A stretch of DNA of 64,000 nucleotides from Marsupella aquatica (taxonomy: Eukaryota; Plantae; Marchantiophyta). This document shows, piece after piece, positions 20,460 through 63,328 of the stretch. The stretch lies in assembly GCA_973895155.1 (NCBI GenBank), contig OZ316891.1:18409987-18473986 (forward strand). The letters run 5' to 3'. The notes below the pieces were generated by a model, which worked only from the letters and a program-made list of their open reading frames with translations, was not told the DNA's origin and made no database searches. The translations under genes and the position numbers were made by a program. Every line of letters begins with the position of its first letter. Within the stretch, counting starts at the first letter, position 1.

Positions 20460-21272
20460 CCTTTGGGACCCTCACTCCAGGTTTAACCTTTTTGCCCTTT
20501 GGCAGTGTGATATATATCCATCCACTACAACACTATGGCCCTCTATTGCGAACCGGAATCCATCGCAAACAACAAAGGGACACAAAAAATAAAATTGTCA
20601 CTTGCGAACCAACCCGCATCGCACTTTCCCATGCCAAGTCCTTTGCAAACGGACCTTCGCAACTCCATCGCAACTTTCAAAGCTAGTGCTTTTGCAAAAC
20701 AAACGCAACATTGCGATTCCCAAATCTTCCCAAAAAATGCCATTTCGCCACCATCGCCCACGTTGCGACGCAAATACGCTCGGAGTTTTTTCAAAGCAAC
20801 ATTGCTCGCACGTTTGTGAGCAAGTTTGTCTCGCAAAGTTGCGATATTGTATGGCTTTTAAATTTGCGATTAGTATTGAATCACTTCATTGTGAATCTGG
20901 GACAATCTCAAGATTTGCGATTGTTAAAATATCGCAATATTTGCAACATGTCTGTGGACGCTTGTTTTGTGATGAAAATATTCTCTGAAGTTGTGAAGGG
21001 ATGAGTGTCGCAATTGGTTCGCAAAAATGGGAAATCTTTGAAATTGGTTTGTAATTCCAGTTTAGGGTTCAGGCTTAGGGTATGAATGGAATAGGCCTTG
21101 TATGGAAGGCAAAATGGAAGGCAAAATCCGGAATAGATATGAAATTAATCAAAATGTGCAAAATTTACAAAATGTAAAGGTGCTAACCCTTACCAAAGGG
21201 GCATGTCAAATGCATGGAACATATAAACCCTAACTACGGGTCTAAACCACTAAAACCTGCCACCTAAATCCT

Positions 21273-23360
21273 CTAGAAAGGGGACTTCCTTCCCTTGCTT
21301 GCCTTCTTCCCCTTGGCCTTGTCCTTCTCTTTCTCCTTGCCCTTGCCCTTGCGGGTTTGCGCAGGGGGCGGTGGGACCTCCTCCTCCTCTTCCTGGTCAT
21401 CCTCCTGGTCCGCTTCCTCATCCCCCTCCTCATCTCCATCCTCCTCCTCCTGGGCTGCTGCACTACCGGAACCACTACCACGGGCTGATGCAAAAGATTG
21501 GTCTCCAGTGCTAGTGGGCCCGGCACGACTACCAGGAGCAGTGCTCAAATCCTCCTCGTCGCTACTAGCAGTGTCACCCTCCTTGTCAGAGGTACTATCC
21601 CCCTCTGGTGCCTGCTTCCACACAAACCAAAGGGTACCAATTAGTGGCTTGCCTTTAACCTTAAAAATGTCTTCACAATAATCTGTATCATGAATGCCAA
21701 GGGTCCAAAAATGTGAAAAGGCTCACCAACAACTCGTCAACTTGCCAAAATAGAGTCTCCTTTCCATGCTTCTGCCCCACCTCCATTTCTGTTGGGGTGA
21801 TCTTCCTCCTGTACTTCTTGTACTATGCATCATCAACACCCGCAAAAAACACCCGCAAAAAGAAGAGGAACAGCAAGGCATTAGGCCACATTAAACCTCA
21901 AATCATGTAGGTAGGAAATGTTGGGGTGGGTTTAGGAGGGTTATGGTGGGGGCCAAGGTGTTGGGGCCTTAAGGGCCAAAACTTAACATTAAAAAAAAGA
22001 CCGTTTTTGAATTTGCAAAGCCCATACCTTCGCAAAAAGCAGCATGATTAGGTTTGCAAAGCTGGTTGCGATGCGCGTTGCTTCACAAGTGCTTCGCAAA
22101 ATCTCCCCAAAAAATATTAATAATAGTGTTTGCAAACATGTTGCAAAGCAACACGCATCGCAAACGCTTCGCAAACTCTGTTACGACTCTGTTATGTCCA
22201 ACCCGAGTGTGCACGACCTAAAACGACTTGTAAGGTTCAACAGTAACTACTTACTAGCAAAAAGGAAACAATCGGGAGCCATTGCAAATGTCTTGAAACA
22301 AGAATTGGAGAAGGAAGGAGTGAAGGGAGGAGAGGGAGGCACTCACGAATGCTGCCTTGAGGCCGAGGAGGCCACCTTGACCAAGCCTGTGGGTTATGTT
22401 GGGCTTCTCCTGGATGCGCTCAGCTGCCTTGAGGAATTTCTTGGGCGGATCGCCGACATTTGCCACAACCTGCTGGAGTTGGGCCACCTTTTGCTCCATA
22501 GTTTTCAGGTCACGGTCAGACTTCCCGGCCTCTCTCGCCTTCTGGGCCTTTGCTAGCTTCTCAATGAATTCCTTGAGGAGCCTGGTTGCTTTGAGCTTCA
22601 CCTCAGTCTGGTAGAAGGCGTTCCAGACATCCTCAGAGAATTGCAGCGGCCGCTGTAGATTTATGTACTCCTCCAGGTCTCTCAGGTGAGCTATGATCTT
22701 CTTCCTATCGTGGTATCTTGCTTGGGACATAGAATTGCCAATTTTGTCTGCAAGCCATTGTGAGTCAATCTCTCCTCCATTTCAAAATGCATCCTTCACT
22801 TGATTCATGACTCGCCTCTGCTCTGCCTTCGAAACACTGCCCCACTCAACCCCTCGAGCAAAATTGGTTGACACAATGTGCCTGATTGTGCTCTTTGCCC
22901 CGAGATAAGCCAGCTCTGTTGGAATTCCTTCTTCTTCTAGAGTAATCAGGGGCAGCTTCTTCCTGGCCTCCTCTGTCTTTCTCTGCTCTTCCCCTTGCTT
23001 CCTGATCAGGTCTCGCTCTTCCTTCCTTCTCTTCTTTTCCAGGGCATGAGGGGAGAGGACACCGGCCTTCGCCCTCTCATCTCTCTTCCTCTTCTTCTCA
23101 ATAGACTTCTGCTCCGCTGCCTTCTTCTCCTCCTCATCCCTTGCTGCGTGCCCTGCAATCATACCAAATTGCAATGCCTGGCCTAAAATTGCACTCAATG
23201 ATCCCAGCCCTGCTAGTGTGGTCAAATCCAGTTTGCTCAATTGTGCCACGGAAAAGTGCTTGTCCACCATCTTCTGCAGTTGGTCCTCCCCCCCTCTGTT
23301 ACCCCCATTGCTACCAGAAGCTCCATCACCTCCAGCACTACCTCCTTCGCTCGCAATCAC
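21273..23360 (-). pseudogene. CACTA ORF2 / TnpA-like accessory gene, transcribed divergently from the transposase; one in-frame stop
   Basis: Exons 23360-22347 (TGA at 22782-22784, frame continues), 21822-21727 and 21659-21273, joined in phase 0 by GT-AG introns. Features: coiled-coil K/E region, W-rich helical segment, HRLGQGG motif reminiscent of Ptta/En/Spm ORF2 (Transposase_24), and an acidic/basic tail. Confidence 0.7.
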
Positions 23361-24935
23361 TGTGCCTGCACCCTAACCTTCGCTCTTCCGATGAAAAAAT
23401 GCACTCTCCCGGCCGTTCCGCGCTCGGGATTCATAAGGGTCAATGGAGATAGGGTTTGTGAAACTCTACGCATCTCAACTTGCGATGCAGAACCTTTCGC
23501 CAAAAGCATCGCAAACGCCTCCATTTGCGAAGTTATTTTGTTCACAACGAGGTTTTCGCATGAGATTGCGAAGATGTTCTTCTCGCACCCATCACGTGTG
23601 AATTTGAATTTTGAATTAAGGTGGGGGGTATACTTAAGCGGGTGTATAAGTGATAAGACTAATAAGCTAAGGTATGTAGGAGGGGTTTTAAGGTTGGAGG
23701 GATATGAAGGATGGTGTATCCTATTGTTGTTTGAGATTATGGCCAATTTAGGAGAGATAAATGATTTGGGTTTGTTTGAAGTAAGGGTCTGATGGTAATT
23801 TTGGAGGGTGAGACCTTGGCTTTGGCATTGGGTACTAACATATGGTAAGAGGGATTTGGCATGTGAAGTTTTGGTCATTTAGGAGGGTAAGAGGGGTTTT
23901 GGCATTTGCTCTTTACAGGAACATAGGAGGGCTTAAGTGGTGAGGGTTTAGGGTCAGATTATGTTAATTTAGGAGGGTAAGACCCTCGGCTTTGGCATTT
24001 ATGGTTTATGGTAACTTATGAGGGTAAGAGGGGGTTGGTGTTTGGATGTTATGCTAACATAGGAGGAGAACATAATATATAAGATGCAGGGTGACCATTA
24101 CTTTGGTGGATTTTGACAAATGCATAGGCATTGTGGGAGCTTGGGCATCTGAAAGGTACAAGGTGTATGTATTGGTGTGGTTTTGTTTTTCATTGGACAT
24201 ATATACTTTGGCAAATATATATATATTTTTAGGGGCCCACAGTTTGGGGTAAAAGAAGCATTGCAACTTGAGTTGCATACAGTTTTTCCCTCCTACTCTT
24301 CGATATGGTTTTTTGAACCATAAGACTATTAGGCACTATTGAGCCCAAGCTCCATAGAGGTATTTTCCATACTTCATTTGAGGTTTACAATTTTTAGGGT
24401 TTTCCAAGGGTCTAAAGTGGTTCTCTTCTAGAGTTGTTGAAGGGAGGGAATTGAATGAGTTTTTCTCTGTTTGGGTTTATCCTAACAAATGAGGGAAAAA
24501 ATCTATGCTTACATGATACATTGCAGGCCATCAATTTCCTCAACTTTTGAGTAATGTTAATGCATATGCATTGTGGGAGCCCGGGCATCTGCAAGGTAAA
24601 AATATATACTCTGTAGGGTTTTTAATGTGTGACCTATTTTTTCATGTACATGTATATATTTGGGGACCAACAACTTGGAACAAGTTAGCTAATGATTGTT
24701 TTAATGCACGTTATATCTGTAGTTTTTTCTTCCTACTTCCAGATTTGGCTTATTTTCCTTGAGCCACATGACCTATAGGCACTGCTGAGCTGGGGTCCCA
24801 TACAGGTATTTTCTATGTACTTGAAACTTATTTTTGGACCTCATTTTTGGAATGGTTGAGTGGCTTCAATTGTTACCTAGAAGGTTGCTAGTTGGCCTAT
24901 ATTATGCTAATCATGTTGTACCCTAAATTTTGCAG

Positions 24936-25171
24936 TGGATATATCTTCCTCCTCAGAACTTTCCAGCAGTGACTTCTCCTCCTCTGATGAGGATATACCA
25001 CCTCCTCCTGAACCTGAAGTTACCGGTCCTCCTCGTGGTCCACCCCGACAACTCTGTCAATGCACCAGATGTGTGGGCCAAATTTCTCAAAAATCTTATG
25101 TATGTGCTCAACATATTGAGAGATATGGCCGTCATAGAGGTCTTACTCCGGGGGCTTCTTCATCCCATATG
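24936..25171 (+). CDS. CACTA exon encoding an acidic/Pro stretch plus a transposase-associated Zn-finger-like motif
   Basis: TTGCAG acceptor ending at 24935. Encodes CQCTRC-x13-H-x3-YG, like the CPCxxC...HL..G transposase-associated domain. Donor ATG|GTGAGT at 25171/25172 (phase 0). Confidence 0.7.
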
Positions 25172-25269
25172 GTGAGTGTGTAACAATACTTTGCTATTTT
25201 CTCCTCATATTCTTACAAGTGAACCAATGTTTACACCTATGGTTGTTTGTGGGTTTTTGGATGAAATAG

Positions 25270-26100
25270 GGATCCAACATGCGTAGAGTGGTGACACCAC
25301 CACCCTATGTCCCATCACAAGGGGTTCTAGATGCTATAGGAAATGCACTTTCACAAGCCTTGGGTGTAGGGATGAGCACCATTCATGGGGAAGAAGAGGA
25401 ACAACCTCAGGTGCCTAGTGGGACACGAAGACCGCGGTCCAGGCCCGAGTCCAGGAGGAGGCCACGAGCGCCCACTGACCCATCCAGAACACTTGTTGAG
25501 GGTAGGTGGGGTATATGTGAGTTCACTGGCAAGTGTGCTTCTATCATCAAGATGTGGGATGCCTCGACTCTTGGCTTGCCATATTTTATAGGTTTTGATG
25601 AGGAGGTTGGGGTTTGGGGTAGACGTTGGGTTGTGAAGGCTTCGACGCTTGGAGAGAGACATGGCTATGGGGTTTTTGCTTGTGAGGACATCATTGTGGA
25701 CGATGTGAGTGGGTCAAGTGTTCGTGGTAGAGAGGGTCCTACTTTGTTCCCATACGGTGGACCCATCTACAAGAGAAGACACTTGAACATGATCCTTGCA
25801 CAACATCCTGAGTGGAAAACATATGCCTTAGAGATGGATACTTTTGATGGTAGCACTAGAAGGTATAGTGAACAGCGAGTGATAGACGGTGACCCCATAC
25901 GTAATGGGAATATTGCTGGCTTCATAAATAGTACTGTGGGGAGTCGGCCCAAGCGTAGGGCCAATTGTGAGTGAGTTTTTATTGATGGTCCAATGTCGGC
26001 ACCATATGGTGAGAGATATCATAAGGACCATTGCTTAGTTCTTGCTACTAGGACCATTAGAGCTGTCGATGAGTTATTCACACACTACGAGTGGGATTAG
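25270..26100 (+). pseudogene. SET-domain (lysine methyltransferase-like) exon embedded in the CACTA transposase gene; one premature stop
   Basis: SET motifs in canonical order: STLGERHGYGVFACEDI, PYGG, YALEM, IDGDPIRNGNIAGFINST..ANCE, then TGA 25972-25974 (probably from TGG), then VLATRTIRAVDELFTHYEWD* ending at 26100. TAG acceptor at 25267-25269 is in phase 0. Confidence 0.85.
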
Positions 26101-26342
26101 GCTGCCATGTCATCACCTTTGCCATATTTTGTACTAGAGACTTACCTTTATGTATATGGCCTTGGCCTCATTTTGGAGTAATACATTTAGGCCTCATTTT
26201 GGAGCAATACATAATTTACTTTGTATTATTTATGTTTATGCAAATGTTTTTACCTTAAGTTACTTAATTTTTTGTCTAAAGTATGTATTACTTTACCTGG
26301 TAAATCATACATGAAGAGGATTTTTGGTTGTATTGTCCATAG

Positions 26343-29300
26343 AATGCGCAACCCTCTCAACAAATATTACCACGAAGGTTGAGGGTAGCATATCGGGAGA
26401 TGGGTATGCCAGCAGAAGGAGAACCATCAGATGCTGATTCCTCATCAAGTAATAATCCAAGTGATGCTGATGAGGAAGAGACACCCCAAACTGATGACCA
26501 GGTCATGCATGACCAAGACAGAGCCATGGATGACTTCATGGTTGATTGGTTTGGTGCTGATGTTGGGGATGGTGTCCATGACATTAGTGTTGAAGGAGCT
26601 GCCCCCCAAAATGACCCACGACCACAACATACTCCTGAGGGACAACAACAATGGAAGGAGGCTGAGGAACATGCCCGGACACCTATCTTTGAGGGTGCTC
26701 GGTTGAGTCGGTTGTCAGCCATATTGGGGTTGTTGAACATTCAGGCTAAACATAAGGCAAGCAATTCTATGTTATCAGACATATTTGAATATTGTCATGA
26801 CCTGATGTTACCTAGTGAGAATGTGTTGCCAGGAACCTGGAAGGATGCAAAAAAGATTCTCTCATCCATTGGCATGGATTACCATATCATTCATGCGTGT
26901 GTGAATGATTGCATGTTATTTCATGGGGACAAAGCCCATGTCATAGTATGCACCGTGTGTCATGAGCCACGGTATGATCCAAACATGCTAACCCAGAAGG
27001 TGCCAAGGAAAGTTGTTCGTTGGTTCCCCATTATTCCTCGCTTGTTGCACATGTATAGATGTTCTAACTTGGCCGAGTTGATGGTATGGCACAAGAAGCA
27101 TCGTTCAGAGCTTGGTGTGATGCGATTACCAGTTGACTCTCCTGCTCATAAACATGTAGAGTCAACATGGCCAGATTTTGAGCGTGACCCTCGGCATGTG
27201 CGATTGGGGTTGGCTTCAGATGGGGTTAGCCCTCATTCACTTGGGGGGAAGGGGAGGCCTACATCGGTTTGGCCAGTGGTTCTCATGAATTACAACCTTC
27301 CACCATGGTTGTCCATGAAAAAGGGCTTTTTGTTGTTATCTTTGATTATCCTAGGGCCAAAGAAGGTGAAGAACATGGACACCTACATGGCATTACTGGT
27401 TTAGGAACTCCAAAAATTATGGGAGGGAGTGTGGGCATATGATGGTCGAAAGATTACAGAGGGTTTATCACGGGTTTTCAAACTGAAAGGGATTTGTATG
27501 TGGATCATGCATGACTATCCAGGTAAGAACTGTTACACTCTAGTACTTACTTATTTAATTTCCATCATATGAGGATGCATGGTATTATTTTCTTTTCTTT
27601 GTCAATCATAACACAATCATTTGCTGATGTATTTTTTGGCAGGCTTTGGTTTTGTCAGTGGGTTGCAAACCCAAGGCTACAAAGCTTGCTCCACTTGTGG
27701 CCCATGCCTTGGTGATATAGCCAAGTACTCATCGCACCTTCACAAGATTATTTATCTTGGGCATACAAAATTTCTCCCAATGGGACATGCAATGAGGTTT
27801 GATCCACTTCTATTTTCCTCCATTGATATGCTGCTTGGTGATGAGCGTGAAGTACCTGAGCCAACAACTTTTGCACACTGGAAAGACTTGGCTGATAGAG
27901 TGGCTGACCCTGAGGATCCCATGCAGTTTGAGGGTAGTGGGTTGACAAGGTGGAGTACGTATTCTAACCACTTTGCCCTATTGGGGAGAATTGAAGATCT
28001 GTCATCTATTAGATCCCATGCACATTGAGGGGAATGTGGGAAAGGCATTGATAAAAGCTTTCTATGGAGAGAAGGACACTAACTTCAGGGAGGCTTGTGA
28101 GGATCTTGAGATGCATCCAGATGTGTGGGCGACAACTGATCCAGTTACAGGGATGGAACACCGACCATCAGCTCCATGGGTGCTTCCTGTTGGACAACAA
28201 AGGGAGTTTTGAAATTGCATAGGAGACATGAGGTTTCCTACCGGTTATGGAGCCAATCTTCGAAAGGCTTTTGGGATGGAGGACAATCATAAGTGGCCAC
28301 GATATTTGAAGACACATGACTACCACCGACTATTGCAACATATATTGCCCGTGGCAATACTAGGTTTGGCAAGTGAAGAAGTGCAAGATGCCCTTTGGTC
28401 ATTGGGAAAACTATTGAGATGGATATGCTCAAAGGAGATTTATAGTGAGGAGATCCCAGGGATGAAGGTATTGGCTGTAGAGGTGGTGTGCAAGTTGGAG
28501 AAGGCCCTCCCTCCTTCCTTTTTTGATTGTCAAGTGCATTTACTTGTTCACCTTGTTCATGAGGTTGCCATTGCGGGTCCTGTGCATTGTCGGTGGATGT
28601 ATTGGTTGGAACGATACATGACAATTTTAAAGGGATATGTACGAAACCGTGCAAGAGTTGAGGGAAGCATGGCTACAGGATATTTGGCAGTAGAAAGTAT
28701 GTTTTATTGCAGCAACATATTAGCCACAATAGATTGTACCTCTCCCCGTACTTGGAACGAGGAGAGGGAGGATGAAGTGGATCGTTTGACAGGGGCCACC
28801 AAAACCCGCATGTTGACACCCATGGAGTTGAAGCAACTGAGTACATTCATGTTGAGTAACAGCACTATCATGGAAGAATGGAGGAACTTCTATGAAGAGG
28901 CCAAAAGTAACAGTCGGAGGCCAAGGATCTTTCCCAAGTGTCATGACTATATGAAGGCAAAGCTAGTTGAGGTGGATGACATGGTGGCCAGGGGAGAGAG
29001 TATATTACATTTTCCAACCATCATAGATGATGTCCGTACCATTATGCATGGTCCCTTGAGAATTGTAACATCAAGGACAGCAATGTGGACACAAGGGAGG
29101 CATTTCAGGTGATTGATCCTACATACCTTACTAACCATCCTCTCTTAATATTTTTGTCAAACGTGATATTAGTTATGTATATTGGAAATATATTTGTGGT
29201 GTATTATGTTAAAATTGTAATATGTTTGCATCTATTTTTTTGTAACATGTCCATATGGTTTCACTAAATTTAGGATTTCTTCCCTTGATGAGAAGAGGGG

Positions 29301-29787
29301 TCGTACATTTGATTGTGGAGTTCAAGGACAATTCTCTCAAGATTCTCGCAGCAGTCGTCACGGCAGATATATTATTCGAGATGTTGTGCCACATTATGGA
29401 AAAATAGAGGAGATCCTAGTGGTATCATATGATGCATAGTCAAAGTTTCAACAGTATATCTTCAAGTGCAAGTAGTTCAAAGTGAACCTTGCAGGTAACA
29501 ATCCCACTGTGGTTCAAGATGAGTGTGGATTTACACGACTCAAGACGTCTGCCACTAGTTTCCAGCCATCGCACTGGCAAACATCAAAGCCATTTACATT
29601 TCCAAGCCATGTGGAGCAATGTTTCTATATTCCATACCCCCCAAACCCAGAGGAGTGGTCACTTGTCATCACGTATGTGCCACAATCTCGTTCTATTATT
29701 GGGGAAAGGCCTGATGTTATGGTTGTGTCCCGCCTGATGAGGATGTGGACCAAGAATGAGGGATATGTATATTATGCGAATATATAG
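26343..29787 (+). pseudogene. tnpD: CACTA TnpD transposase (Transposase_21 + DUF4218 + DUF4216-like), disrupted
   Basis: IHACVNDCMLF, CTVCHEPRY, WFPIIPRL, RLGLASDG, WPVVLMNYNLPPW, WIMHDYPG, LDPMHIEGNV, LKTHDYHRLLQ, FFDCQVHLLVHL, RWMYWLER, EGSMATGY, DECGFT, VEQCFY. Introns at 27523-27642 and ~29109-29272. Stops at 27402, 28210 and ~29440-29475, plus a frameshift near 27965. Confidence 0.95.
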
Positions 29788-29979
29788 TGATGCCAATTCC
29801 TATCATTGGATTCATATTTATGATGATTTCTCTGTCTTCTTTGTTGAAGATATATTCATGTGCATTTGTGAATTGATCATGTCATTTTGAAATGTCATTG
29901 ATATACTCTAAACCCTAAACTCCATGCCTCCACACCTTTTGCTAGACTTTGTGTTATGACAACTCATGCTACTTGTACT

Positions 29980-30830
29980 CTTTCTCCTTCCTCCTTTCCT
30001 TGACACACCTCCTTTCTCCCTAAATCCCTCTTTCCTTTTCACTCTCTTAACCTAAACCCTGGCTCCTTAATTTCTCCATCATATATATAATTATATACAT
30101 CCTCCCTCCTTCCCTCTGGCTCCTTTCCTTGTCCAAAATCCTTTCTCCCTCTTACCTAAACTGACCCTCCCTAACTTGTCCCGGCCTCCCTCCTTTCCTT
30201 GTCTCACCCCCTTTAATCCCTCTTAAGTACCTATACTGGCCCTCCCTAACTTGTCCCTCCAACCTGCCCCATCCTTTCCTTGTCCCACCCCCTCATCCCT
30301 GTACCCTAAATTCATGGCCCACCCTCCTCCTTCCCCTTCCCTCACTTCCTTGTCCCATCCTGGACCCTTACTTTCTTCCTCTTACCCATATATAACCAAA
30401 CTCCTTCCTCCCTCCTTTCCTTGTCCCAAACCCTTTCTCCCTCTTACCTAAATTAATTGGCCAACCCTCCTCCTTCCTCCCTCTTTTCCTTTTCCCTCCC
30501 TCCTTTCCTTGTTCCAAGCCCTTTCTCCCTCTTACCTATATTAATTGGCTAACCCTCTTCCTTACTCCATCTTTTCCTTTTCCCCTTCTTGTCCCCCGTG
30601 TCTCCTTAATTTCTCCCTCTTACCTTGCCTATACCCTCTTTCCTCCCTCGATTCCTTGCATCCCACCCCTTTCTCCCTCTTACCTATATACCGGCCTTCC
30701 CTAAATTGGCGCACCCTCCTCCTTCCTCCCTCCTTTCCTTGTCCCAACCGTCCCCTTTCTCCCTCTTTCTCCCTCCTACCCTTGTCCCTCCATCGTCCCT
30801 CACTTGGCCCATCCCTTTTTTTCTCCTAAA
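29980..30830. repeat. Degenerate CT-rich (polypyrimidine) repeat tract in the CACTA-1 3' region
   Basis: Recurring cctcctttccttgtccc / ctttctccctcttaccta units. Confidence 0.8.
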
Positions 30831-31559
30831 TTACCTTCAATGTCACTTATTAATTTTGCGAACTATTTTGCGAACAAGATTCCTTTGCAATACCTTCGCT
30901 AAACATTTCCGATAAAATAATATTTGCAACTTGTCCATTCCCACATCCTCGCAATCTTGCGAATCAACCCGCATCATAAATTTGCGAACCGTATTTCATC
31001 GCAAGCATTGTTGCCAAAGTCGGCATGATATTGCGATATTAGTCTCTTCGCATAGTTGCCATACATTCATGTTCGCAAACTTGCGATAGAATGAGTCTCA
31101 CAAAAGTCCGAGCGAGGGCTGATGACTCACAAAAATATTGAGGGTATTAAGATCGCATAGTAGTTGCGATGACGAACGATTCACAAACGCGTCCGAATGG
31201 AAATGATATCGCAACATGTTTGCAATTAAGTAAGCACCGCAAGCATTTGAGATGGATTCCGCATCGCAAATTGGGGTTGCGATGCTATTATGATCGCTAA
31301 TTGAGATGAGTTATTGCAAAGCGAGCGATGGACAGTGTCTTGCAGGGCGTTTCAGCGCAACTAAATCGCCTTCGCAAAAAGGCCCAATATGTAGTAGTGA
31401 TCTTGGATACTTTGGTGGGCACCAATCTAGAATTTCACTCTTTAATAAGTAAAAGAAGATACCTTACAGGAATGCTCCAAAGTATCGTTTATATATAGAT
31501 GACATCTCGTTCATAGATAACTTGATAACAATGGCAGAGATCATCCCATCTATTTTGCA

Positions 31560-33174
31560 AGTAGACTCCTAGCTGCTGCTAAAAAGAACTATTCTGCTAC
31601 CGATCGAGAAGCTCTAGGGATAGTCTACTCGTGCAAGAAGTTTTGACACTACTTGCTGGGCTACAAGGTAGTATTTCACACTGACCATAATGCTCTGAAA
31701 TATATGGTCAACAAACCTGATTTGATTGGGAGAGTGGCAAGGTGGATGCTACTACTCCAAGAATTTGACTATGACATCCGGGTGCGGCCAGGTAAGCAAC
31801 ACACAAATTATGCTGATTTTTCCTCCAGGATTGAAGGACCAGCAGATGAGAAGGTGATTGATGATCAATTCCCTGATGAGGACTTATTCCAAGTCAATCT
31901 CAACCCGCCAACCTGGTATAAGGATATCATCGATTTTCTATCCTCGGCAAGGATGCCAAGGGAGATGAACCAAGAGGTTGGTGCTGTCTTTTTGAGAAAG
32001 ACCAGACCCTACAGGCTGATCAAGGGAGTGCTACACAAGGAAGGAGTTGATGGAACGATCAGGAGATGCTTGGAGAAGAAGGAAGTAGAGGTAGTGATAA
32101 GAGCTTTACATGAAGAAGAGGCCAGAGGACATTTTGCAGCAGCAACCACATCAAGGAAGGTCATGGATGCTGGTTATTGGTGGCCTACTTTGCACAAGGA
32201 TGTTCAGTTGTTTATCAGGGCTTGCGACCCCTGCCAACGGACAGGTAAACCAGCTTTCTCGCAACATCATCCTCTTACTCCAATTTTGCCTCTAGCTCCT
32301 TTTGAGAAGTGGGGTATTGACTTCATTGGTCCAATCACCCCAGTCACTAAGAGTCGCAAGAATAGATACATCCTACTAGCTACTGATTATGCTACCAAGT
32401 GGGTAGAAGCTAGACCAACAGCAGGGGACGATGCCAAAACAGTGGCCAGATTTCTATATGAGCAGATTTTCTGTAGATTTGGACCACCCTTAGAACTAGT
32501 GAGTGATCGGGGGACCCATTTCTTGAATACAACTATCGAGGAGCTTACCAACCAGTATTGGGTGAAGCACCAAAAGACCACTCCTTATCATCCGAAGGCT
32601 AATGGTCTGACAAAAAGAGCTAATGGAATCATTGGCAAAATTCTCAACAAGACGGTGGCATCTCACAAGACTGATTGGGACGTCAAGCTCTATTCGGCGG
32701 TGTATGCTTACAACCTGGCCTACAAGACCACAACAGGTCAGACGCCATACTTCCTGGTTTTTGGACAACACGCTCTTGTACCGGTTGAATTTGAAGTGCC
32801 TTCCTTGAGAGTCGCTTTGGAAGATAGAATGCCGGCGGGTTTAAGTCTAAGGGAGAGAACATGCCAACTGGAGAGATTGGAGGAGACTAGGGAGCATGCC
32901 AGCGAGCGCTTGGAGCATCAACAGCAGCTTGCAAAGAAATATCATGACAAGAAGATCAAGCCCACCCCACTACAGACTGGTGACTTGGTCTTGCTATGTG
33001 ATTCTCGCTATGTCCATTTCCTGGGTAAGCTTCATACTCGCTGGTTGGGGCCATACAATGTGCATACTGTTTTTCAGAATGGCTCAGTCCAACGTACTGG
33101 CAACATTGGAGGGTGAAGTTTATCCAGTCAGGGTACACTTTGATCGGCTCAAGAAGTATCACATGGGAGTTTAG
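31560..33174 (+). mobile_element. pol: Ty3/Gypsy pol fragment: RNase H C-terminus + integrase
   Basis: KNYSATDREALGIVY, HTDHNALKY, RVARWMLLLQEFD, HHCC zinc finger (H...GHF...YWWP...CDPCQ), DDE core (WGIDFIGP, SDRGTHF, YHPKANG), GPY motif. Stop at ~31645 and frameshift near 33090. Confidence 0.93.
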
Positions 33175-33211
33175 TGTTTGCGAGGACGCTTCACAATTGA
33201 GACGGGGGCTA

Positions 33212-38829: not shown

Positions 38830-39065
38830 AGCTAGAACTTACTAGAACTTACTTTTTACCACGGTAAATTCTAGAACTCACTTTTTTACCATGGTAAATT
38901 CTAGAAGTTACCAGAATTTACCTTTTTACTATGGTAAATACTAGAAATTACTATTTACTAAGGTAGATTCTAGAAGTTATTGGAATTTACCTTTTTACTA
39001 TAGTAAATTCTAGAAGTTACTATTTACTATAGTAGATCTTGAAAATTACCAAAACTTATAATTTT
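38830..39065. repeat. Short tandem subrepeats (~28-40 bp) inside the Gypsy LTR
   Basis: Recurring tagaa(c/g)ttac...tttac(c/t)atggtaaattc units. Confidence 0.8.
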
Positions 39066-39909
39066 ACTTGGTAAAACCCAAAATCCCCTTTTTACCACAA
39101 AAACCTCTTCTTTTACATTTTCACACAAAACCAAGCTATTCTTCATATAATCTAATTCCCTTACGACATTCACCCCCACTGAATCTGTGCAGCCTCCGGT
39201 CTGCACCAACCTTCGTCTTCCTCTTCTTCTTCCAAGTTGTCTAGCGCCTCATTTCCTCCAAACCCACTCCTTTGTTTGAAAAGTTTGACTCGTTTCCCTG
39301 CATAAGGTGTACGATGCTCTGTTCCATCCAACTCTCGAATGCTGTAAGTCGCATTTTCATGAACCTTAGTCACCACATAAGGTCCTCCCCACCTCCTTGC
39401 AAACTTCTTAAGTGCCGAATGTTGATTATCCAAACTGTTGTCTGAAATCAACACCCAATCACCTTCGCGGATGGGAATTGGTCGGAGTCGATGGATTTTG
39501 TCAAAGCGAATCTTGTTCTTCAAGCGCGCCTCTGTCACCCTCTCCCTTGCAAGCTTTATCATTTCTGGCTTAAGACTGAAGTGCTCAATCCTTCTTGCAA
39601 TCAGCTCTTCAGTGGAGACCGGATTTCTCCATTCTATGGTGCGCCAACTATAGACATCTTCCTCAATTGGCATGAGTGGTAGATGCCCTTAAACTAGCTC
39701 GACTGGTGGAAACCCAGTGACCGAACTACAAGTGATTCTATCAGCCATGAGTGCCAAAGGTAGCAATTCAGGCTATAGTGAAGGCTTACCATGACACGCC
39801 TTCACTAATGCATTGACAATAGGTGGATGTCCTCTTTCACTTTTGCCATTTGCCTCTGGATTGTAAGCTGTGGTTAGCTTGAGGCGAATATGAAATTTCT
39901 CTAAGAATT

Positions 39910-51299: not shown

Positions 51300-51373
51300 C
51301 GTCGTGATACATGCATCCGTCAAATATCTTTACTCCGGACACATAACTACTGACGGATGCATGTATCACGACG
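51300..51373. other. Perfect 23-bp inverted repeat with 28-nt loop (hairpin)
   Basis: CGTCGTGATACATGCATCCGTCA (51300-51322) pairs with TGACGGATGCATGTATCACGACG (51351-51373). Confidence 0.9.
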
Positions 51374-54300
51374 TGTTTGACTAATTTCTCCAGTGGATCT
51401 TGGATGATTGAGCTCAAATAAACAGTGTGACCTTTGGAAACTGATTCAAACTCGTTACTGCAATAACATATTAATAATTGTTGCCATGCAACCTTGGGAG
51501 GTTAGGGGCGACCACTACAAGGCAGAGTAGGTCCAGGGTTCGTACTCGGCAGTCAGTCGACCTGCACCAGTGGGAGGACATCACAGTAGTTTTTGACACG
51601 GTGGAATCTGCATCGAAGGGTCAGGTCAGGTCATAATGTTACTCGATTATTAGAACGAATTGGGCTGGCCTGCTCTACATCATGTTATGCGATTCATTGT
51701 GAACGAGTTGGACTACATTATGAACAATTTGTTACAGTACTACCCACCAAGGTAGAATTGTCTCGAGCGCTTGGAATTTATCGTGCCCACATGCACGCAT
51801 GATTCTTAGAGGTCCAGGTCTGCAAGTCGGGCCCCAGCTCAACATCGGATTGTAAGTGTTAGCTAGACTTTTCTGAACATATTCATTGATCCTCTTAAGA
51901 CTCTAGGACTGTCAGGACCCAATTCAAGAAATGATTCATCATTCGAAAAGTACCAAAAGTTGAAGTGTCTCGGAAGTGAAAGTCAGTGCGAGACTGATGC
52001 TTTATTGAACACCTTCAAATTAGGTGCAGATCTCAACAAATGCTTGTAATCGTACAAATCTTGAACTTCCTTAGTGTGATTCAGCTTTCCACGGCATAGT
52101 GTATTCATCAGTTTGGAGATTTCAGGTGCATTATAATATCCCAAAACTCGAGTATGTGCTTTCATTTGCAAAATAATGGTCTGAAAACATTGATTTCTCG
52201 TGTGCGGTGTCACCGAGTCGGACGTCTCCAGGAAATATTTGCACTGAATTACTGGCCAGCTACAGATGTTTTGCACTTGGACACAAACTGCGAAATTTCG
52301 TTGCTAGAATAATCACTGCAAATCACCCGTGTTATACTCATTTTGTCCTCAAAAATTAAACTTCCCTGAGATGGCAACCTGGCTCGTGATTGCGCTTGAG
52401 AATGAGTGGTGCGAATTGTAACATTGGCCTGAATATTGCCTCCACGTGATATTGGCCATGCAATATGCCTAAAACCTTCTGTAGCTTGGTTTATTTCACA
52501 AGTCCTGTCAGTGCAGAAAAAGCAAGACCGCTGTACATATTGCCATGACAGGAAGCCGCCATCCCCTGATCAAGCTTGTAGCGATCGTAAGTAACGACTG
52601 CTTGAGAAAGCCCTTGACATTTAAGATTCTAGACTGCTTCTGTACGCAAATCCTGTTGTGACGCCGGCCTCAGAAACAGTAGTACTGTGCAGTGTTTCGG
52701 TGTTTCCTGTGGCCCACATTATGTCAAGTGTCGCCAAAATTTCACGGGTGAAAACTAACAGAGAATCTGCGTGCAGGAAGATGCCAGTCAGAATGATGAA
52801 GAAAGTTTGACATTCATCCTGATTCAGCTCGATTTCAGATGAGGAGGGTACGGACAGAGAAGGGAAAATCATGAGCTTCCATGAATCCACAAACTACACT
52901 GGGTGTGTGCCACGTCAAGTAATATCTTGGAGTTAAATAAGATTTGGGGTGGTCATTTCTACCAGTTTGGGATATGACAGTAAAAACTGCTATGCCCAAA
53001 CCTCCCAACCATTCCAGTGAACTAAAATCATGTTGATGTGGATCTGGAGTTTTGTGCTGGTGTGTGTATGGTTGTTTTGCCTAAAATAAACAAATGAATT
53101 AAAATTCATTCAAAAAGCCAACATGCAAAAGCAGTGTGAATGGGTTGCTTGTGGGGTGTGTGCACGCTCGACAAGTTATTGTTAGGGTGTGTCAAAGCAC
53201 AGTTGTACCTGAGTGAGTTACGACACAGGATATAAAATTCACTTATGGCCAGGATAGAATCTTAGTGGGTTACCAAAATACGTACCCCATAAGGGTGGTA
53301 CATCCAAAAAAATTAAGCCATAACCAAGCCATAACCAAAGTGTTAGGAGAACTTTGACACGCCCTATTGGAGTAAGTGTGGTTTTCTACATTCCACTATC
53401 CTTAATCTAAATACACATTTTGCCATTAATAAATTGATTACTACATTGCATGTAGTCTATTGCCACTGTTGGTTCAGCAAAGTAACTATATAGTTTGCTC
53501 AAACTGTGCACATTTGACCAGGTTATATCAATGTATGGTGATAGGTCCAAGTCTTTCACTGGAACTACAAGTGACACCCTTTTCATTGTGACACCCTTTT
53601 CACTGGGACTTGCCACGGATTGGTCAAATTCTGACTCTCTTAGCTTGAGAATTTGGTTGCATGTAGCAAAACAACCTGATTTTGACAATTGCTTGTGATA
53701 ACCACGCTCCCTGTTGAAATCAACCTGCAAAGCAACGTGTGGCAGTTGAAAGAATGCCAAACTGCTCAGGCCATTGCTGAATGAGTCCATAACAATTTCG
53801 TGAGAAAATCTAATCTAAACAATGCAAACTGTAAAATTTATCCTATTTGTTGACTTACTACCAGCTTTCCATCCTAATCAGACTTCTCTCTTCTCTAAGC
53901 TTAATCTCTATCCTTCTCCATTTGGTGAATAGTTGCGCTAACACTAGTAGAAAATGGGGCCTTTTATGACTATGACACATATGACTTATGTGCTCAAATG
54001 ACAAAATATGTAAATGACATAACATAAATGACATTGAAATGACTGTCCAAAATGACGGGGTGCAAAAAATGACTAATACTTGCAATAGTGTCATTTAAAC
54101 CAATGAGCCAAATGACTTTGACTGCTATAATGACAACAATCATGAGTTGTAGTCATTTTGGACAGTCTTTGTGAATGACACAATTAACAAAAACTCTGTC
54201 ATATCAGTGTTTCACATATGGGAAGTCATTTCAGACGACGGTGACTAATGACTAATAAATCAAATATGCAAATATCAGTGTTTAAAAATGTTAGTAGTCA

Positions 54301-54829
54301 TTTAAACCAAAAGTGATAAATGACATGATAAACAACATATGACTATTTTGAGGTTTATGGTTTAGTACATGTTTTAGGGTTTAGGGTATGATTAGTCATC
54401 CAAAATGTATGGTAGTATATATAAAGACCAGTGGCACTCACATATTAGATTTGAAATACATTTAGAGACCTAACAAGCCTTCTTTTGTTGTGAGTCTCAT
54501 CATTAAATTGATGTACAACTTAAAGGCTTGATAATCTCTAATAAGTATGTACATTTAAATATATACTTGCACCCATTCATTACATCTTTCCTATATATGC
54601 CAAGGACTCCTGAAGTGTTTACATTCCTTAAGCTGTATTCACATTTCACATGTTTGAGTATAGATGGGGGCATGCAAGGTTGCCAAATAACACTCTCTGG
54701 CATAGGTCTAGGGTTTAAGGTTTAGAATTTAGGTACTACATGCCTATATTTGCTCATGTCATTTTTTTCAATATATTATTCATGTTATTTGCAAAGGATT
54801 CCCAATCATTTTTCCCGTCATTTTTGCTC

Positions 54830-56770: not shown

Positions 56771-57429
56771 GCAACAATCATGTAAGCCACACACAATATG
56801 ACTCATTACACCCCTTGATGACATATTCCGCCATATTGATGGTAGGAGCCGACCATGAGTTACATACACAAAACAATGATATATATAGGGTGTACGACGG
56901 AACATGCATAATTATGTTCATAAAAGGGCAGGGTTTAGGGTGAAGTGTTAAAATTAGACTAAGTCAGTCCACAATTATGTTTGAATGGGATCCTTCTAAA
57001 CATACCCCCAAGCTCGCCCCCAAGACCTCATCAATCAATAAGCTCCCCCTTGTATGTATTTATATGTTTTGGGGGTCATAATGAGTAATGGTTTAGGGTG
57101 CACATGGCCCCCCCTTTCCTAAGGGTCTCCCAAGTCTTTTGATGGGGGATAGGATCACAGCATCTGGACCGTCTATGTAGCATCTATAATCATCCCCTCA
57201 TGCAATCGTGGCCCTTTGCACAGGAATGTTATTTTACACTACCTTGCATTGGATGCCTTCCTTAGTCCGGTCAAACATCAAGAACAGCATATCGAATGTT
57301 GCGTTTTGTGTCCCAGTCGGTGCAGGTTTACGTGTAGGGTTTACCGTTGCAAGGCAGTGCATGCTCAGGCAGAGTGCTCTCACATTGTCACCCGACAACA
57401 TTAGGGCTGTGAGTTTCCTCGTAGCGATA

Positions 57430-57575
57430 AGCGGGGAGTTGAGGTGCGACCTTCAGTTGGTGTTGTGGGGAGTGAGTGCGCAACCTTGGTGCTGCGGGGA
57501 GTCAAGGTGCGACCTTGGTGCTACGGGGAGTCGACGGACTAAACTGCGGGGAGTCGATCGACCTTGGTGCTGCAT
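57430..57575. repeat. Degenerate GC-rich tandem repeat (GCGGGGAGT...GCGACCTTGGTGCT)
   Basis: About 5 imperfect units seen directly. Confidence 0.7.
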
Positions 57576-60500
57576 TCATGGGTAAACACGTTGACGGACC
57601 AAACGATAAGTGTGACAGGCTTCTCGTTTGGGCCACCCCAAATTTTTTCTAAGTGTAAAATGCGACGTGATACAAACCAAGATTTCCTACAAAATCAAAC
57701 ATTTTCAAGCGCAAAATCAAAACATCTCAAACTTTGACTAGTGAACCTTACAAAACGAGGTGGAATGACATTTTGTATCACCAAGTTTTATCGAGGCAAT
57801 ACGAAATATGATACGGGGCATCACATTTCACATTCCTTAACAAGTAAATTCGATGTGATTGCTTTATCAATAGAGAATATTCCAAAAAGATACCAACTAT
57901 GGTCAAGTTAACCCATTAATAATTGTACTATGGTAAAACTTAACTCGACCACAGTACAAACTAAACTAGGCTGAATCTGAAAAGTATATATAAAGGACCA
58001 CAAAAAATAATTAGCTTCATAATTTTGTTTTGTGTCCTCTAACCCATGTTACTCCTTCCTCAATGTTGAAAGCAATTGTCCATACAAACCCGGATTCAAC
58101 AAGGCCACCGACTAAAATGCTAGTAGTTATCCTCACTTATCCTCCTTTTCCTTTACTTCAAACCCAAATCTGATTCTTTGTATCACATTTCAGATTCTTA
58201 ATGTTACTTTACCATTCAAAAGTGATAGAGTACTCTTGAAAGCAAAACCCAAATCTGATACGCTGTATCACATTTTGGATTCCTAAAGGGTTGAAAGAGG
58301 TATTAGTTTGAGTGGGAAATGAGGGTATTGGGCTTGAGAATTAGATTTTGGATATACTTGCTTGAACAATCCAAAATCTGATACGTGTATCAGATTTTGT
58401 ATTCTTTATAGAGATTTTGTAATTTTGTTTCGGTGATCATCCTTTGCATTCCAATGCAAATTCCTGGTCATTTTGAATCTGGTGTCGGTATTCCTATATC
58501 CAATGCTCTCATCACGGACGAGACTTGCTTCCTCTCTGTTCTAAATTGAACAAATGCTTCCGGGGATCCTAAAGGTGAGCCAATCTGACGTCATTGACAT
58601 AGAAAATTGAGTAGACAACATTTATCTGGTTTAGTGGGTGAGACGTAATATGAAGAAATGTCTTTGTCACTTCCCTCTGAATCGGAGTCTTTAATGTCTA
58701 CTTGGGGCTCCACTCGCTTAGAGGGTGGAAGTTTGGCTTGCAAATGAGAAGGAATAAATCTATGAACAACCCCGGGGGAGGATTGGATGTAACTAGCAAT
58801 GCTTTCTTATGACTCAGAGCTAGACATGGTTATCATAAACTCTATACAACCCAGGTTTTCTCACAAGATGTGCCTCTACGACTGTTTAAATACTACAAAA
58901 TTTTCAAAATCTTGAGCACCCCACAAATGAAAAATATGAAGGTCCTATGAAAGTGAAGCTCAAAATTTGATGACGGACCATGCTTTTATAGTTTTGGGGT
59001 TGTGTTTGCCACGTGGCATAGCTTGATTGGTTTTCACTAAGAGACAAAATATAGAAATGATCTGGTTTCCAGAATTTTGAGAGCATTATGATCCAGGTAT
59101 CATGGTTAGGATTATACTCAATGTTTTGCTTCTAGTGACAAATGGACTGACCAGGTGTTTTGATAGGAGGTTTTTGGGTGTTCGCAATAATTCTGATCTG
59201 TGTATCATGATTGTAATTCCTCTCAAGGTTTGGAGGACTGGAAAATAATTTAAAGCATGTTTTTGAAGATGTGTTTTGAGTTTGGGAACCCAACAATCCA
59301 AGGATCACAAATTAATTGAATTCCTCCCATTATTTTATGCGCTAGAAAATTATTTGTATTTTCAATGGGTAGTTTTGTGTATTGGCAACAATCCATGATC
59401 CGTGGATCATGGTTGGGATTAGGTTTGATGGTTTGAATCGTGCAACAGTGTCATTTAGTTGTGAGTCTTAGCTTAACCGGAAGTGAGTTAAAGTAACTGA
59501 CTATGGATGTAACTGCGCAGTTGCATGGTAGTCCCCAAACCTTGGGTTCACATGACGATCAAATTTGGAGTTTTGGGTATCTTTCAATTCATAAATTATT
59601 ACTATTATTTTGAATTTGTTGTCAAACATCGTTTGGGCAGGTTGCAAAAGTCAATTCGTAAACTGAATCCAAAATTTGATACGTGGTATCACTTTTGGTA
59701 TGTGAAAAGTTAAGCGTACTGTTGCTCATCATAAAAAATTTAGTTTTTGGTCAAAATCTTGAGTTTGGAAACAATTGCAAAAATTTATCTAACACATTTT
59801 ATTTTTCCAAATGTGTGTATTCTAGTCTCTAGTCTCTCGCAAAACATGACATCCAAATATTTTATTTCCAAATCATTAGTTTAGCTCCCAAAACGTCACT
59901 AGGAGCAATACGAAAACTGATCCATTTCTTAATTTTTTTCAAAAAAGCTTGTTTTAACAAAAAAACATGTTTTGTATTACCATTTTTTGCAAAATCTGAA
60001 GAGGCTTCTCGTTTGGTGGTCACACTTCTCGTTTGGTCCGTCAACGTGTTGGTAGACATTGAAGGAGGGCCGCTGCGCTTGGCTGCCATTGTCGAGGCCC
60101 CGGGTCGAGGCAGGTAGGAGGACAGCTGCTACCATCGTCGAGGGCAACCTGCTTGCAAAATGGGAGAGTGATGAGTTGTTGTGTGGGAGGTGCGGGTTTC
60201 ACCGTGGGGAGGTTTGCACTTGGAGGTTGAGACCAAGCTCTTCATTGGAGGATTGCCTTATTTTGACTGCAAAGGTTTTTGAGAACCAGCTCAGTGGAAC
60301 TCAGCTTGCTCAGTGGAAACTTGTAGCTTCTTGTCACTAAGGTTGGCTGCTTACAGAGCAAGCTTGGTGGAGAAAGGACTCCGCAACACCGTTGCTCCCT
60401 CGGACTATCTACAGAGCGCAAGCTCCTGTATGTGCAAGTTGAGACCCGGGACCTTCAATGTTGTAGTTGCCTCCAACCTGCAACGCTGCTGCAACGCCAT

Positions 60501-62614
60501 TGCTCGCAAGCTGCTACAGAGCGCAACCTCTTGCGACTTCCACCTCAAAGGTATGACATGGATGATTGGAGTCAGTGGATAGTTGCGCATTCTCTGTCCA
60601 ATTTATGTGGCACTACGTCCCCCAAGTAAGTATCTGGCCGTGCTGCAATGTTGTGCTTCGAGCTGCGATGAAGGTGGACATGCATTAGAGATACCCTGTG
60701 TGTCCCAAGCACTAGAATAGACTGTGGCCTACTTTGCTTTGTCTATCCTTGAAGTTGCTTGATGCCACACACAGCGGCTTCATCACATCAAGTGTTCCGC
60801 AGACTCTCGTCTCTTATTTCAAGCTTCCTATTTCTACCAACATTGCTCTGAGTCTTAAAAAACTTTAATGATCAATTCCTCTTCAATGCTCTCTGTTGCT
60901 CTCCAGAAGTTTGCGTTCCTGACTGTATTCCTGTTCATTTTCTATTCATTTTTGTTCAGTTTATGTCCTTGTCTGGCCATACCTCAATTTTTGTCTTTTC
61001 TCATACTCTGCTTACTATGCTTTGTCATGCAGTATACTCATTTACTACAGATTGAATGTGGAGCCGATTGGAGGTGGGCATTGGAGTTGCGATGACCAGC
61101 AAGGTGAGTCCAAGAGGATTGCATCCTCAAGCTTAGGGAAAGAAAAGCTCTTTTTTCCTTGTATCCCCCGTTCTATCCTACTCCTCCTGCATGCAATAAT
61201 TTCTAACTGTATTCTCGTTTCTTACCTGTGTTGGACATACGTGCATTCTAAAGAGACTAGTCGCTGCTGAGGTGCCGCGATTGGATCTGCATTGGAGCTG
61301 CATTCCTGCCTGCATCATCCAAAGATTCTAAGGAGGATTGGAGCTTTGTTTTACAATTTGCGCCATCTGTAAGTATCTTGTGCTCAAATACTAGAGAGCA
61401 GTCTTACAAATTTTTTGCAATGCTGTCAGAGGTGTCTAGATTGTTGGACTATTGAATTGGTTGCCCATTCTTTGTGTTCTTCCTATTGCTGGTACTTATT
61501 TTTTGTGGAACATCCTAGTGAATTTAAGCTACGCAAATTGCCATAAGTCACAAAGGCATCTTTCATGCCATCTGGATATTGTGCCATCAAATTTTACGTT
61601 CCATTTCTTACATGATTGTGTTGGACTGACATTGGACCTGCATATCTGAAGAGACTTGTTGCTGCACCGGTGCGGTTAGTATTGGATAACCCTAAAGCTG
61701 CATTCCCACAAGCTGCAGCATCCAGGGATTCTAAGGAAGATTGGACCCTTGTTTGGTGGTGCTGCTACACAAGAAGGCTCCAGTGGAGGTGGGCTTGCTT
61801 GCATCCATGTCGTGTGTTTGTTGTTGTGATCGATTGGGTTGCTGTTGAGATTTATTTTTCTTGAATTTAGAAAATGCTTAATTGAGTCGTCTTGACTGTT
61901 TTTTCTTCACTAAGTAACAAGGCGGCCCCAAGAGACTCTGAATAAAATCCCTAAATCCTTGAAAGAACATCATTTTAAGAGTTGTGGTGACTTTCTACAG
62001 TGGTGACTTGATGTGGAGGTGAGCTTATTTCTCAGTGAAGGGGGGCCCAGTCCACTGTACTCAGATAATGACTTGTGTGCAGTGGCTAGTATACCAGTTC
62101 CTTTCTTTGTGCAAGTAAGACCTGTGAATGTTTAAATGAGTTTTTAAAAGGATAGAGGTTTTAATCCGATGTAGTTAGCCCCCCCCCCCCACAAGAAGAG
62201 CTACAGCCCTGTCTATACTATCCCCAGTCGCTACTGAATTCTACCTGCTCCAACAAGTATTGAATGAGTACAATTTCAGTGAACAATATTTAATTTGTGT
62301 GCTCTATGGTCTTCACAGTGGTTGCCTTTTTGAATAAACTTCTCTTTGACTCTTCTGAACATTTTTTCCAAGTCTGCCTGACACTAAACCCTGAACTGCT
62401 TGCTCTCTGTGCAGAGCACCCTTAAGCCAAAGCCAAGTTATTTTTGACATTGCTTGTACTCCGTGAGATCAAGGTGGGCAGGACATCTCCTGATTTGTAC
62501 TAAGACCTCTTACGGTAAGTACACTATGTCCACATACCATCTTTGTACTTGTCTGTTGCCCTTCTCCATACACTTCTTGTAATATTCAAGGTAATTACAT
62601 GTGCAGATCCACGC

Positions 62615-63328
62615 ATGACATCGGGCATGGCACGAGCTGATGCTGCCTGGCTGGATCCAAAGTTTGCCCATAAAGAACACCTTCGCTTGGATCCCCCTTG
62701 TTGTTTTGAATGTGATGAGGGAGGCACTATTTTGTTTTGCGATGGGCCTTGCAGTCATCATTTCCATTACTTAGTTCATGGCCAGCAAGCTCCTCAGGAG
62801 CCTGATGGCCATGGGCCTGAGTGCACACCCGTTGCCATTTCTAGAGGGCATGATTGGGCCAAGGAGTGGCTCTGTGACCTCTGTCAGCAGAACCAAGGTC
62901 GTTGCTTTGCTTGTGGACTACTTGGCCGAACCCTAAAGCCCACTACAGATGAGCCCCTTGTGGTCCAGTGTGCACAAGATGACTGCTCTTCTTTTTATCA
63001 CGTGGGTTGTCTGCGGACCATACTGAGGGCAAGGGAGTTGCCTCTCCTGGGGTACGCACAAAACTCAGATGCACATCCCGCTGCTCTGATATGCCCAAGG
63101 CATTATTGTGATGTTTGCAAGGAGTATCGGGATGGCATCTGGGAATTCATCCAGTGTCGTAGGTGCCCTCGTGCGTGGTGCAGGGATGAGGGACCATAGG
63201 CAGACAAACACCTCAAGAGAGGGGTGAAGGGTAGAGAAACGTGGGATATTGGTCCATGGCGTATGGTGTACTGCAATCGCCATGTCATTCCAGAGAGTTC
63301 TGATGTGCCACCTCATGATTTCAAATAG
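62615..63328 (+). pseudogene. EDM2-like: Stand-alone EDM2/NSD-type triple PHD-finger cassette (~237 codons), intronless, one in-frame TAG
   Basis: CFECDEGGTILFCDGPCSHHFH...WLCDLCQQNQGRCFACGLLG...VQCAQDDCSSFYHVGC...ICPRHYCDVC...IQCRRCPRAW. After TAG 63197-63199 the frame continues RETWDIGPWRMVYCNRH. The order and spacing match the EDM2 PHD array (CxxCDNGG..CCEG.C..SFH; CF.C..LG; CGxFYHPxC; CPLHKC; CRRCPKSY; RAW...IYCxxH). Confidence 0.85.

Follow-up and report, generated by a model that had tools for sequence, protein, structure and literature searches.

Does a transposon of liverworts carry histone-code genes of its own, and, if so, are these working parts of the element or stray pieces of its host? 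The question is raised by 64,000 nucleotides of Marsupella aquatica DNA (Marchantiophyta; GCA_973895155.1, contig OZ316891.1, positions 18,409,987 to 18,473,986 of the forward strand), here called the window, in which a SET-domain exon and an array of PHD fingers accompany two CACTA elements, CACTA-1 and CACTA-2, respectively. The reading that best explains the whole, to which we give a probability of about 0.5, is that the SET exon is an alternative exon of the transposase gene (TnpD) of CACTA-1, its product likely methylating chromatin at copies of the same element, and that the PHD array is a separate, repeated gene, probably of CACTA-2. The two elements represent different families, as the original prediction held; this is confirmed by their distinct termini and by their subterminal motifs, TCGCAA in CACTA-1 and GTCAT/ATGAC in CACTA-2 (the first 480 bases of CACTA-2 hold 21 of the latter against 0.95 expected, and no TCGCAA).

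The SET exon in the transposase gene of CACTA-1

CACTA-1 shows the paired CACTA termini, 3-bp target duplication, TnpD gene, and subterminal repeats by which CACTA/EnSpm elements are recognized. Its features (window coordinates) are:

20520..20522: ATC left of the element, duplicated on its right side at 31400-31402 (3-bp target duplication)
20523..31399, plus strand: CACTA-1, complete but broken, with CACTA at both termini, imperfect terminal inverted repeats, and a target duplication
20546..21024: left subterminal TCGCAA repeats (14 against 0.14 expected)
21273..23372, minus strand: accessory gene, likely TnpA-like, conserved in relatives
21724-21826, minus strand: small conserved exon of the accessory gene, which also has an acidic/basic tail
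22254-23372, minus strand: main exon of the accessory gene, with an internal stop at 22782-22784
24941..25171, plus strand: exon 1, encoding a small, likely zinc-binding Cys/His domain, with a phase-0 GT donor
25270..26100, plus strand: SET exon, with a phase-0 acceptor, its own stop codon, and a premature stop at 25972-25974
26343..29790, plus strand: TnpD transposase exons, with a phase-0 acceptor, several stops, and one frame break
30856..31399: right subterminal TCGCAA repeats (14 against 0.16 expected) and right terminus

The SET exon is part of intron 1 of TnpD, lying between exon 1 and the exon that begins at 26343. The TnpD exons match PF02992 (E 1.8e-27) and PF13960 (E 3.4e-33) above the Pfam cut-offs, and PF13952 weakly; exon 1 has no Pfam match, and the codon at the position of the relatives' start Met is ATA in the window copy. 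A metagenome scan for SET yielded 38 loci, in which the exon-1 donor is GT wherever it is reached (17/17), the SET acceptor is AG in 25/27, and the TnpD acceptor is AG in 21/22, all of them in phase 0. The shared phase and splice signals, together with the stop codon of the SET exon itself, fit an alternative last exon. There is thus a good likelihood, as far as sequence can indicate, that a single CACTA-1 transcript would yield either an exon 1–SET product, by an early stop and polyadenylation (poly(A)), or an exon 1–TnpD product, by skipping of the SET exon. The available gene models weigh against the second product: among the 15 that include exon 1, 12 join it to the SET exon and none joins it directly to TnpD. 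One Sphagnum annotation discarded gene models rich in transposon domains (PMC9946827), which may partly explain the absence of exon 1–TnpD models. Because TnpD and the accessory gene are broken as well as the SET exon, the window copy of CACTA-1 is dead as a whole.

That CACTA-1 carries a SET domain, as originally proposed, is borne out by both a Pfam match and a predicted fold. With the premature stop read as X, the window SET matches PF00856 at E 2.9e-4 and 21.7 bits, slightly below the cut-off of 22.4, and three of the eight relatives scanned (P0004, P0041, and P0042) exceed the cut-off; two intact relatives do so by a clear or a narrow margin. The premature stop falls where 29/34 aligned rows have Trp. 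The predicted structure (mean predicted local distance difference test score, pLDDT, of 75) matches SET folds at Z 11.7-11.4, with root-mean-square deviations of 2.4-3.1 over 122-147 residues; the best match has Z 11.7 and a deviation of 3.1 over 147 aligned residues. Conservation is near-complete at G134 (37/38 rows) and complete at G164 (39/39), N220 (37/37), and Y273 (33/33), so that GxG, YxG, Asn220, and Tyr273 are kept (GxG, YxG, and NHS being the usual names for cofactor and catalytic sites of SET domains). The protein so modeled is probably an active lysine methyltransferase, and because the SET exon is intact in 5 of the 14 full-length loci, the enzyme is assayable now.

Two observations weigh on the other side. 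The His of the presumed NHS motif is replaced by Ser in 33/37 rows. The tied fold matches, which include COMPASS, SET8, SET7/9, and PRC2 at Z 11.7 to 11.4, span enzymes of H3K4, H4K20, H3K27, and other specificities, so that neither the substrate nor the direction of the effect can be read from the fold. The protein stops three residues past the invariant Tyr and lacks a Cys-rich post-SET part. A sequence search of the PDB with the SET returned only EZH2 (E 0.84), and a SET profile scan of viral contigs returned no relative.

The accessory gene is 64-70% identical to its relatives, and its ratio of nonsynonymous to synonymous substitution rates (dN/dS) between the window and the relatives' loci has a median of 0.14 (10 loci). 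No family was found in a Pfam scan of the window copy and its relatives, and the single-sequence structure model of the protein (pLDDT 48) is unusable; its likely identity as a TnpA-like gene is drawn from its position and a motif. TCGCAA is additionally enriched in two inner clusters of CACTA-1, at ~22030-22170 and ~23350-23570, that flank this minus-strand gene, and the motif is retained in Sphagnum-type SET-CACTA loci as well. The same hexamer is the core of the target motif of Arabidopsis Spm1 TnpA (10.64898/2026.08.24.746577).

Spread of SET-bearing elements and selection upon them

Of 739 candidates, 49 are relatives of the SET protein. They include one cluster of 360 members, many of them Sphagnum entries, along with further Sphagnum clusters, Calypogeia fissa, and Riccia sorocarpa. 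In the metagenome loci, TnpD lies downstream of SET in all 22 in which the end of SET is complete and the sequence runs on for 250 bases or more; the other 16 of the 38 were left out of this count, among them L024, L031, and L032, which have a truncated SET and then other DNA. The TnpA-like gene is upstream of SET in 9/11 sufficiently long loci, and four of the 38 loci reach the CACTA left end, with three different flanks. The recurrent order is therefore that of CACTA-1: terminus, TnpA-like gene, exon 1, SET, TnpD. A qualification is that most of the 38 loci represent one Sphagnum-type family and are not independent.

Between the window and these loci, the median dN/dS for SET is 0.18 (29 loci, one of them saturated), comparable to the values for two parts of TnpD, 0.11 (15 loci) and 0.18 (4 loci), which argues that selection on the element maintains the SET exon as strongly as it does parts of the transposase. 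Among near-identical SET copies, by contrast, dN/dS is 0.99 (333 pairs); the two values together point to selection during transposition and decay after insertion. Judging from these comparisons of sequence, SET is an ancestral part of one CACTA clade common to mosses and liverworts, and no one-off capture.

The SET core is 79% identical between Calypogeia and Sphagnum (P0003 vs. P0004), and either is 80-81% identical to the window; synonymous divergence (dS) between the window and the Sphagnum-type loci (L001-L037; 25270-29790) is only 0.7-1.2. High moss–liverwort identity and low dS suggest horizontal transfer among bryophytes. Deeper SET lineages, with ~41-45% core identity, are represented by P0051, P0050, P0046, P0048, and P0041-P0045, two of them in Calypogeia and Riccia, and a Cys/His N-terminal motif similar to exon 1 is kept in P0046 and P0049. 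Several ancient SET subfamilies thus seem, from their sequences, to coexist.

The PHD gene and its relation to CACTA-2

To the right of CACTA-1, the window contains the left part of CACTA-2 and, farther downstream, the PHD gene:

53942..54420, plus strand: CACTA-2 left terminus and its subterminal GTCAT/ATGAC repeats, preceded by TAA
54817..56892, plus strand: 393-bp tandem array rich in the CACTA-2 motif, its last unit decaying between 56756 and 56856-56892
57585..60050: nested non-coding element, bounded by inverted ends of 32 bp and flanked on either side by GGTA
60051..62606, plus strand: repeated, non-coding leader, likely spliced, with several donor-like sites (splicing judged from motifs only)
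62615..63328, plus strand: stand-alone EDM2/NSD-type PHD array in one coding exon of 237 codons

The last intron-like stretch of the leader (62515-62606) ends 8 bases upstream of the PHD start codon, and a premature stop lies at 63197-63199 (codon 195). The gene matches PF22908 above the cut-off (E 2.2e-9), has full-length profile matches to EDM2-like proteins, and has the three-finger NSD-type array that characterizes them. The window gene, P0085, and P0086 all lack the RFD domain (PF12047) and the long C-terminal region of EDM2; several long profile hits do have the RFD. Of 117 candidates, three are close relatives; two of these are complete, both of them solo proteins (67% and 54% identical), and the Cys/His ligands are retained in the solo relatives. 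A profile search against 1.84 billion representatives returned 232 hits. Solo proteins rank first, followed by proteins of liverworts (Marchantia, Riccia, and Calypogeia) whose PHD array is C-terminal, and then by EDM2-type proteins. Identity to the liverwort and EDM2-type host proteins is 28-33% among the top rows, and in a tree of 48 rows the solo proteins form a clade of their own on a branch of 3.2 changes per site (this is a quick tree, which joins long branches, and the sister group of the solo clade is not resolved in it). Low identity to host proteins and a separate clade together argue for an old, separate gene family and against a recent piece of EDM2; the solo PHD gene is real, repeated, and apparently undescribed. 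A PHD sequence search of the PDB found nothing. A liverwort host subfamily related to EDM2 (P0088-P0093) also has its PHD array at the C-terminus, without the long tail.

The PHD gene is very probably transposon-borne. CpG observed/expected is 0.38 for the PHD gene and leader, and 0.34-0.46 for CACTA-1, vs. 0.92 and 0.88 for two minus-strand host genes of the window (536-4442 and 46315-48752, an ABCG transporter and a leucine-rich-repeat gene), neither of which is CpG-depleted. In four public sequencing runs (X1-X4), up to 26 variant PHD contigs cover one site, and summed contig depth over the gene is 500-610 vs. 9-12 for single-copy-like contigs in X3, and 3311-3582 vs. 29-40 in X4. Two points weigh on the other side: contig depth is not copy number, and PHD profile scans of viral contigs and genome contigs found no relative. 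It is nevertheless highly improbable that the PHD gene is just a single-copy gene of the host, placed after CACTA-2 by chance, for although liverwort host paralogs carry a C-terminal PHD array of the same type, their identity to the window gene is only 28-33%, and the many variant contigs, high depth, CpG depletion, and premature stop also count against it.

Whether the gene lies inside CACTA-2 is less certain, and we favor this placement only to some degree. The predicted EDM2-like PHD array does follow the CACTA-2 left end; its placement within the element, which the prediction also implied, is not secured, since the window contains no right terminus. Public contigs link the CACTA-2 left end to the array, cover 56852-57469, join 57516 to 60074 across the nested element, and connect 60138 to the first 50 bases of PHD; one contig of 2533 bases joins the leader to the PHD start. 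The nested element (57585-60050) is skipped by such a contig joint, and its right-end flanks vary among the public contigs. This chain is thinnest at the end of the array: between its last decayed unit (to 56856-56892) and the next listed contig there are only 5 to 41 bases of overlap. Further points count against the placement: no matching CACTA-2 right terminus occurs in the 64-kb window (the next best has 5/20 mismatches); no transposase was found right of 53942 in the Pfam-scanned frames, some short frames being outside the scan; GTCAT enrichment ends at ~56830, with 1 vs. 1.5 and 11 vs. 7.8 expected farther right; and the PHD gene has no motif enrichment nearby, whereas the inner gene of CACTA-1 has its motif clusters.

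Alternatively, the PHD gene may belong to another repeat (CACTA, Mutator, or Helitron) in or beside a truncated CACTA-2, a reading that we consider unlikely, though a serious one. The early end of the GTCAT enrichment and the lack of a right end or transposase in the window speak for it, as do the nested element already present in the region, a PHD depth that exceeds leader depth in all four runs, and array-side depths that differ in X1 (4168 vs. 678) and X3 (312 vs. 130). The array-side depths are, however, similar in X2 (3061 vs. 2940) and X4 (586 vs. 458), and the transition from the array to the sequence beyond is gradual, neither a terminus nor a target duplication having been seen. Placement inside CACTA-2 is retained as the better of the two readings. 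In public contigs the flank immediately to the left of CACTA-2 (53214-53941) is repetitive too; CACTA-2 may therefore lie inserted in a different repeat.

Elsewhere in the window, an inverted repeat of ~80 bases (94-96% complementary) at 14955-20461 encloses 5.4 kb with a 143-bp tandem array (19561-20160); it has no useful Pfam match and is likely a non-autonomous terminal-inverted-repeat element. The idea that CACTA-1 split the inverted end of an older element was rejected, as only a weak 51-base match was found. Retroelement remnants at 31647-33116, 35139-36024, 39170-39688, and 39883-40380 comprise an open 489-residue RNase H/integrase frame, Copia-like pieces, and a zf-RVT piece. A further 70 short frames of the window gave no useful Pfam match.

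Possible functions, known systems, and implications

On the preferred reading, the finger encoded by the shared exon 1 would bring SET to the element, and the histone mark written there might oppose host silencing; this step is plausible but somewhat less than an even chance. More tentatively, the solo PHD protein could attach to marked H3 tails of the element that carries its gene, and so shield that element from host readers or compete with them. SET and PHD were likely gained independently, and no interaction between them is required. A broader scenario, in which bryophyte CACTAs keep two independently gained ancient histone-code genes, exchange them horizontally between mosses and liverworts, and rewrite or mask silencing marks, with PHD as a decoy of the EDM2 poly(A) pathway, is doubtful. 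The original prediction had suggested that, if both modules are cargo, the CACTAs of this lineage repeatedly recruit chromatin domains, as a putative general toolkit against silencing. Part of this survives, in that SET and PHD both behave as old transposon genes and not as recent host scraps; SET, however, is not specific to the lineage, being common to mosses and liverworts, and two cases are too few to show an enrichment of chromatin cargo.

The SET enzyme could be active and yet do something other than counter silencing, by writing a repressive mark (whether self-limiting or directed at host genes) or by methylating a protein other than a histone, for example TnpD, TnpA, or a silencing factor of the host. 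This is on balance unlikely, but several points speak for it: PRC2, ATXR5, G9a, and SET7/9 are among the fold ties, the absence of the Cys-rich post-SET part and the end three residues after the invariant Tyr are compatible with it, and among the nearest non-self Atlas clusters is one of giant-virus SET proteins (0.96), which is a lead only. The transposon chromatin factors described in the available literature (VANC and TnpA) mostly relieve silencing, which tells against a repressive role by analogy only. Neutral capture of SET and PHD as host gene fragments, in the manner of Pack-CACTA elements, is far less credible. CACTA elements do capture host DNA (PMC13317346), and both modules are broken in the window copy; yet TnpD and the TnpA-like gene are broken as well, neither SET nor PHD has a close host parent (the nearest host protein to PHD is ~30% identical), and the SET dN/dS of 0.18 and fixed position across families largely refute capture for SET. 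Neither module conforms to the Pack-CACTA definition of a recent, neutrally evolving host fragment close to its parent gene.

The prediction had also, as a speculation, linked EDM2 to a switch between SET and TnpD. In its explicit form, the solo PHD protein would act in trans, as EDM2 does, to choose the SET or the TnpD end of the CACTA-1 transcript. The SET/TnpD layout is indeed a choice of intronic last exon, and EDM2 suppresses proximal poly(A) in introns marked with H3K9me2 (PMC7529245). But the solo PHD protein lacks RFD (PF12047) and the long C-terminal part and is only ~30% identical to EDM2-like proteins, it belongs to another family than SET, none of the 38 SET loci has a PHD hit (many of these loci being short), and host EDM2 could do the same job unaided. 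The link thus finds no support here, and such a role for the solo protein is very unlikely. The preferred reading remains that of an alternative SET exon and a separate PHD gene.

Transposon-borne SET genes have precedents. Plavaka elements of red algae, within the EnSpm/CACTA superfamily, have kept a SET gene (PAG2) over long evolutionary time, as a separate gene in a three-gene cassette with SET fused to an adenine methylase (10.1101/2025.02.11.637652); in CACTA-1, SET is instead an exon within the TnpD gene that shares exon 1, has no methylase partner, and occurs in bryophyte hosts. HarbingerS, Phytophthora MuDR, and Helitrons also carry SET genes (cited in PMC12730594, 10.1101/2025.02.11.637652), but these are of other superfamilies and hosts and, as far as described, are accessory genes and not alternative transposase exons. 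A further close system is Spm of maize and Arabidopsis, in which alternative splicing divides transposase and regulator; TnpA, the regulator, attaches to subterminal clusters of motifs and lifts silencing via host DNA demethylases, leaving H3K9me in place (10.64898/2026.08.24.746577), whereas the alternative product of CACTA-1 has a predicted SET enzyme fold. The available main text of that source has no SET-domain, PHD, or bryophyte passage.

For PHD, the nearest known proteins are EDM2 and its liverwort paralogs, which have the three-finger array (PF22908 and neighbors) with the same ligand pattern; Arabidopsis EDM2 binds H3K9me2 and controls poly(A) choice within a three-protein complex (PMC7529245, PMC7890070). 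The solo PHD protein differs in its ~230 residues, the lack of RFD and C-terminal part, and ~30% identity, and its gene is repeated and CpG-depleted. Other transposon-encoded factors aimed at epigenetic marks are VANC of VANDAL Mutator elements and the fungal TET/JBP genes, but they act on DNA methylation, and the comparison with SET and PHD is functional, with no homology claimed (PMC12730594). General background is given in PMC11982613, PMC13317346, and 10.1101/2022.10.24.513474. The literature searched contains no SET in a land-plant CACTA and no EDM2-type PHD in a transposon; Repbase, subscription journals, and bioRxiv supplements (a 962-protein Spm survey and the Plavaka tables) were outside the search and may hold entries.

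If the preferred reading is true, the SET-CACTA would be a plant transposon that writes histone marks directly, whereas the plant anti-silencing factors VANC and TnpA target DNA methylation, as far as the available sources describe them. A transposon-borne EDM2-type reader would, likewise, give elements a new point of contact with the intronic-heterochromatin pathway of their host. Among the classified repeats of Sphagnum, CACTA ranks first in abundance, at 6.8% (PMC9946827), and the coverage of transposons by H3K27me3 vs. H3K9me2 differs among bryophytes (10.1101/2022.10.24.513474); these differences in transposon marks make bryophytes a good place to test such a conflict.

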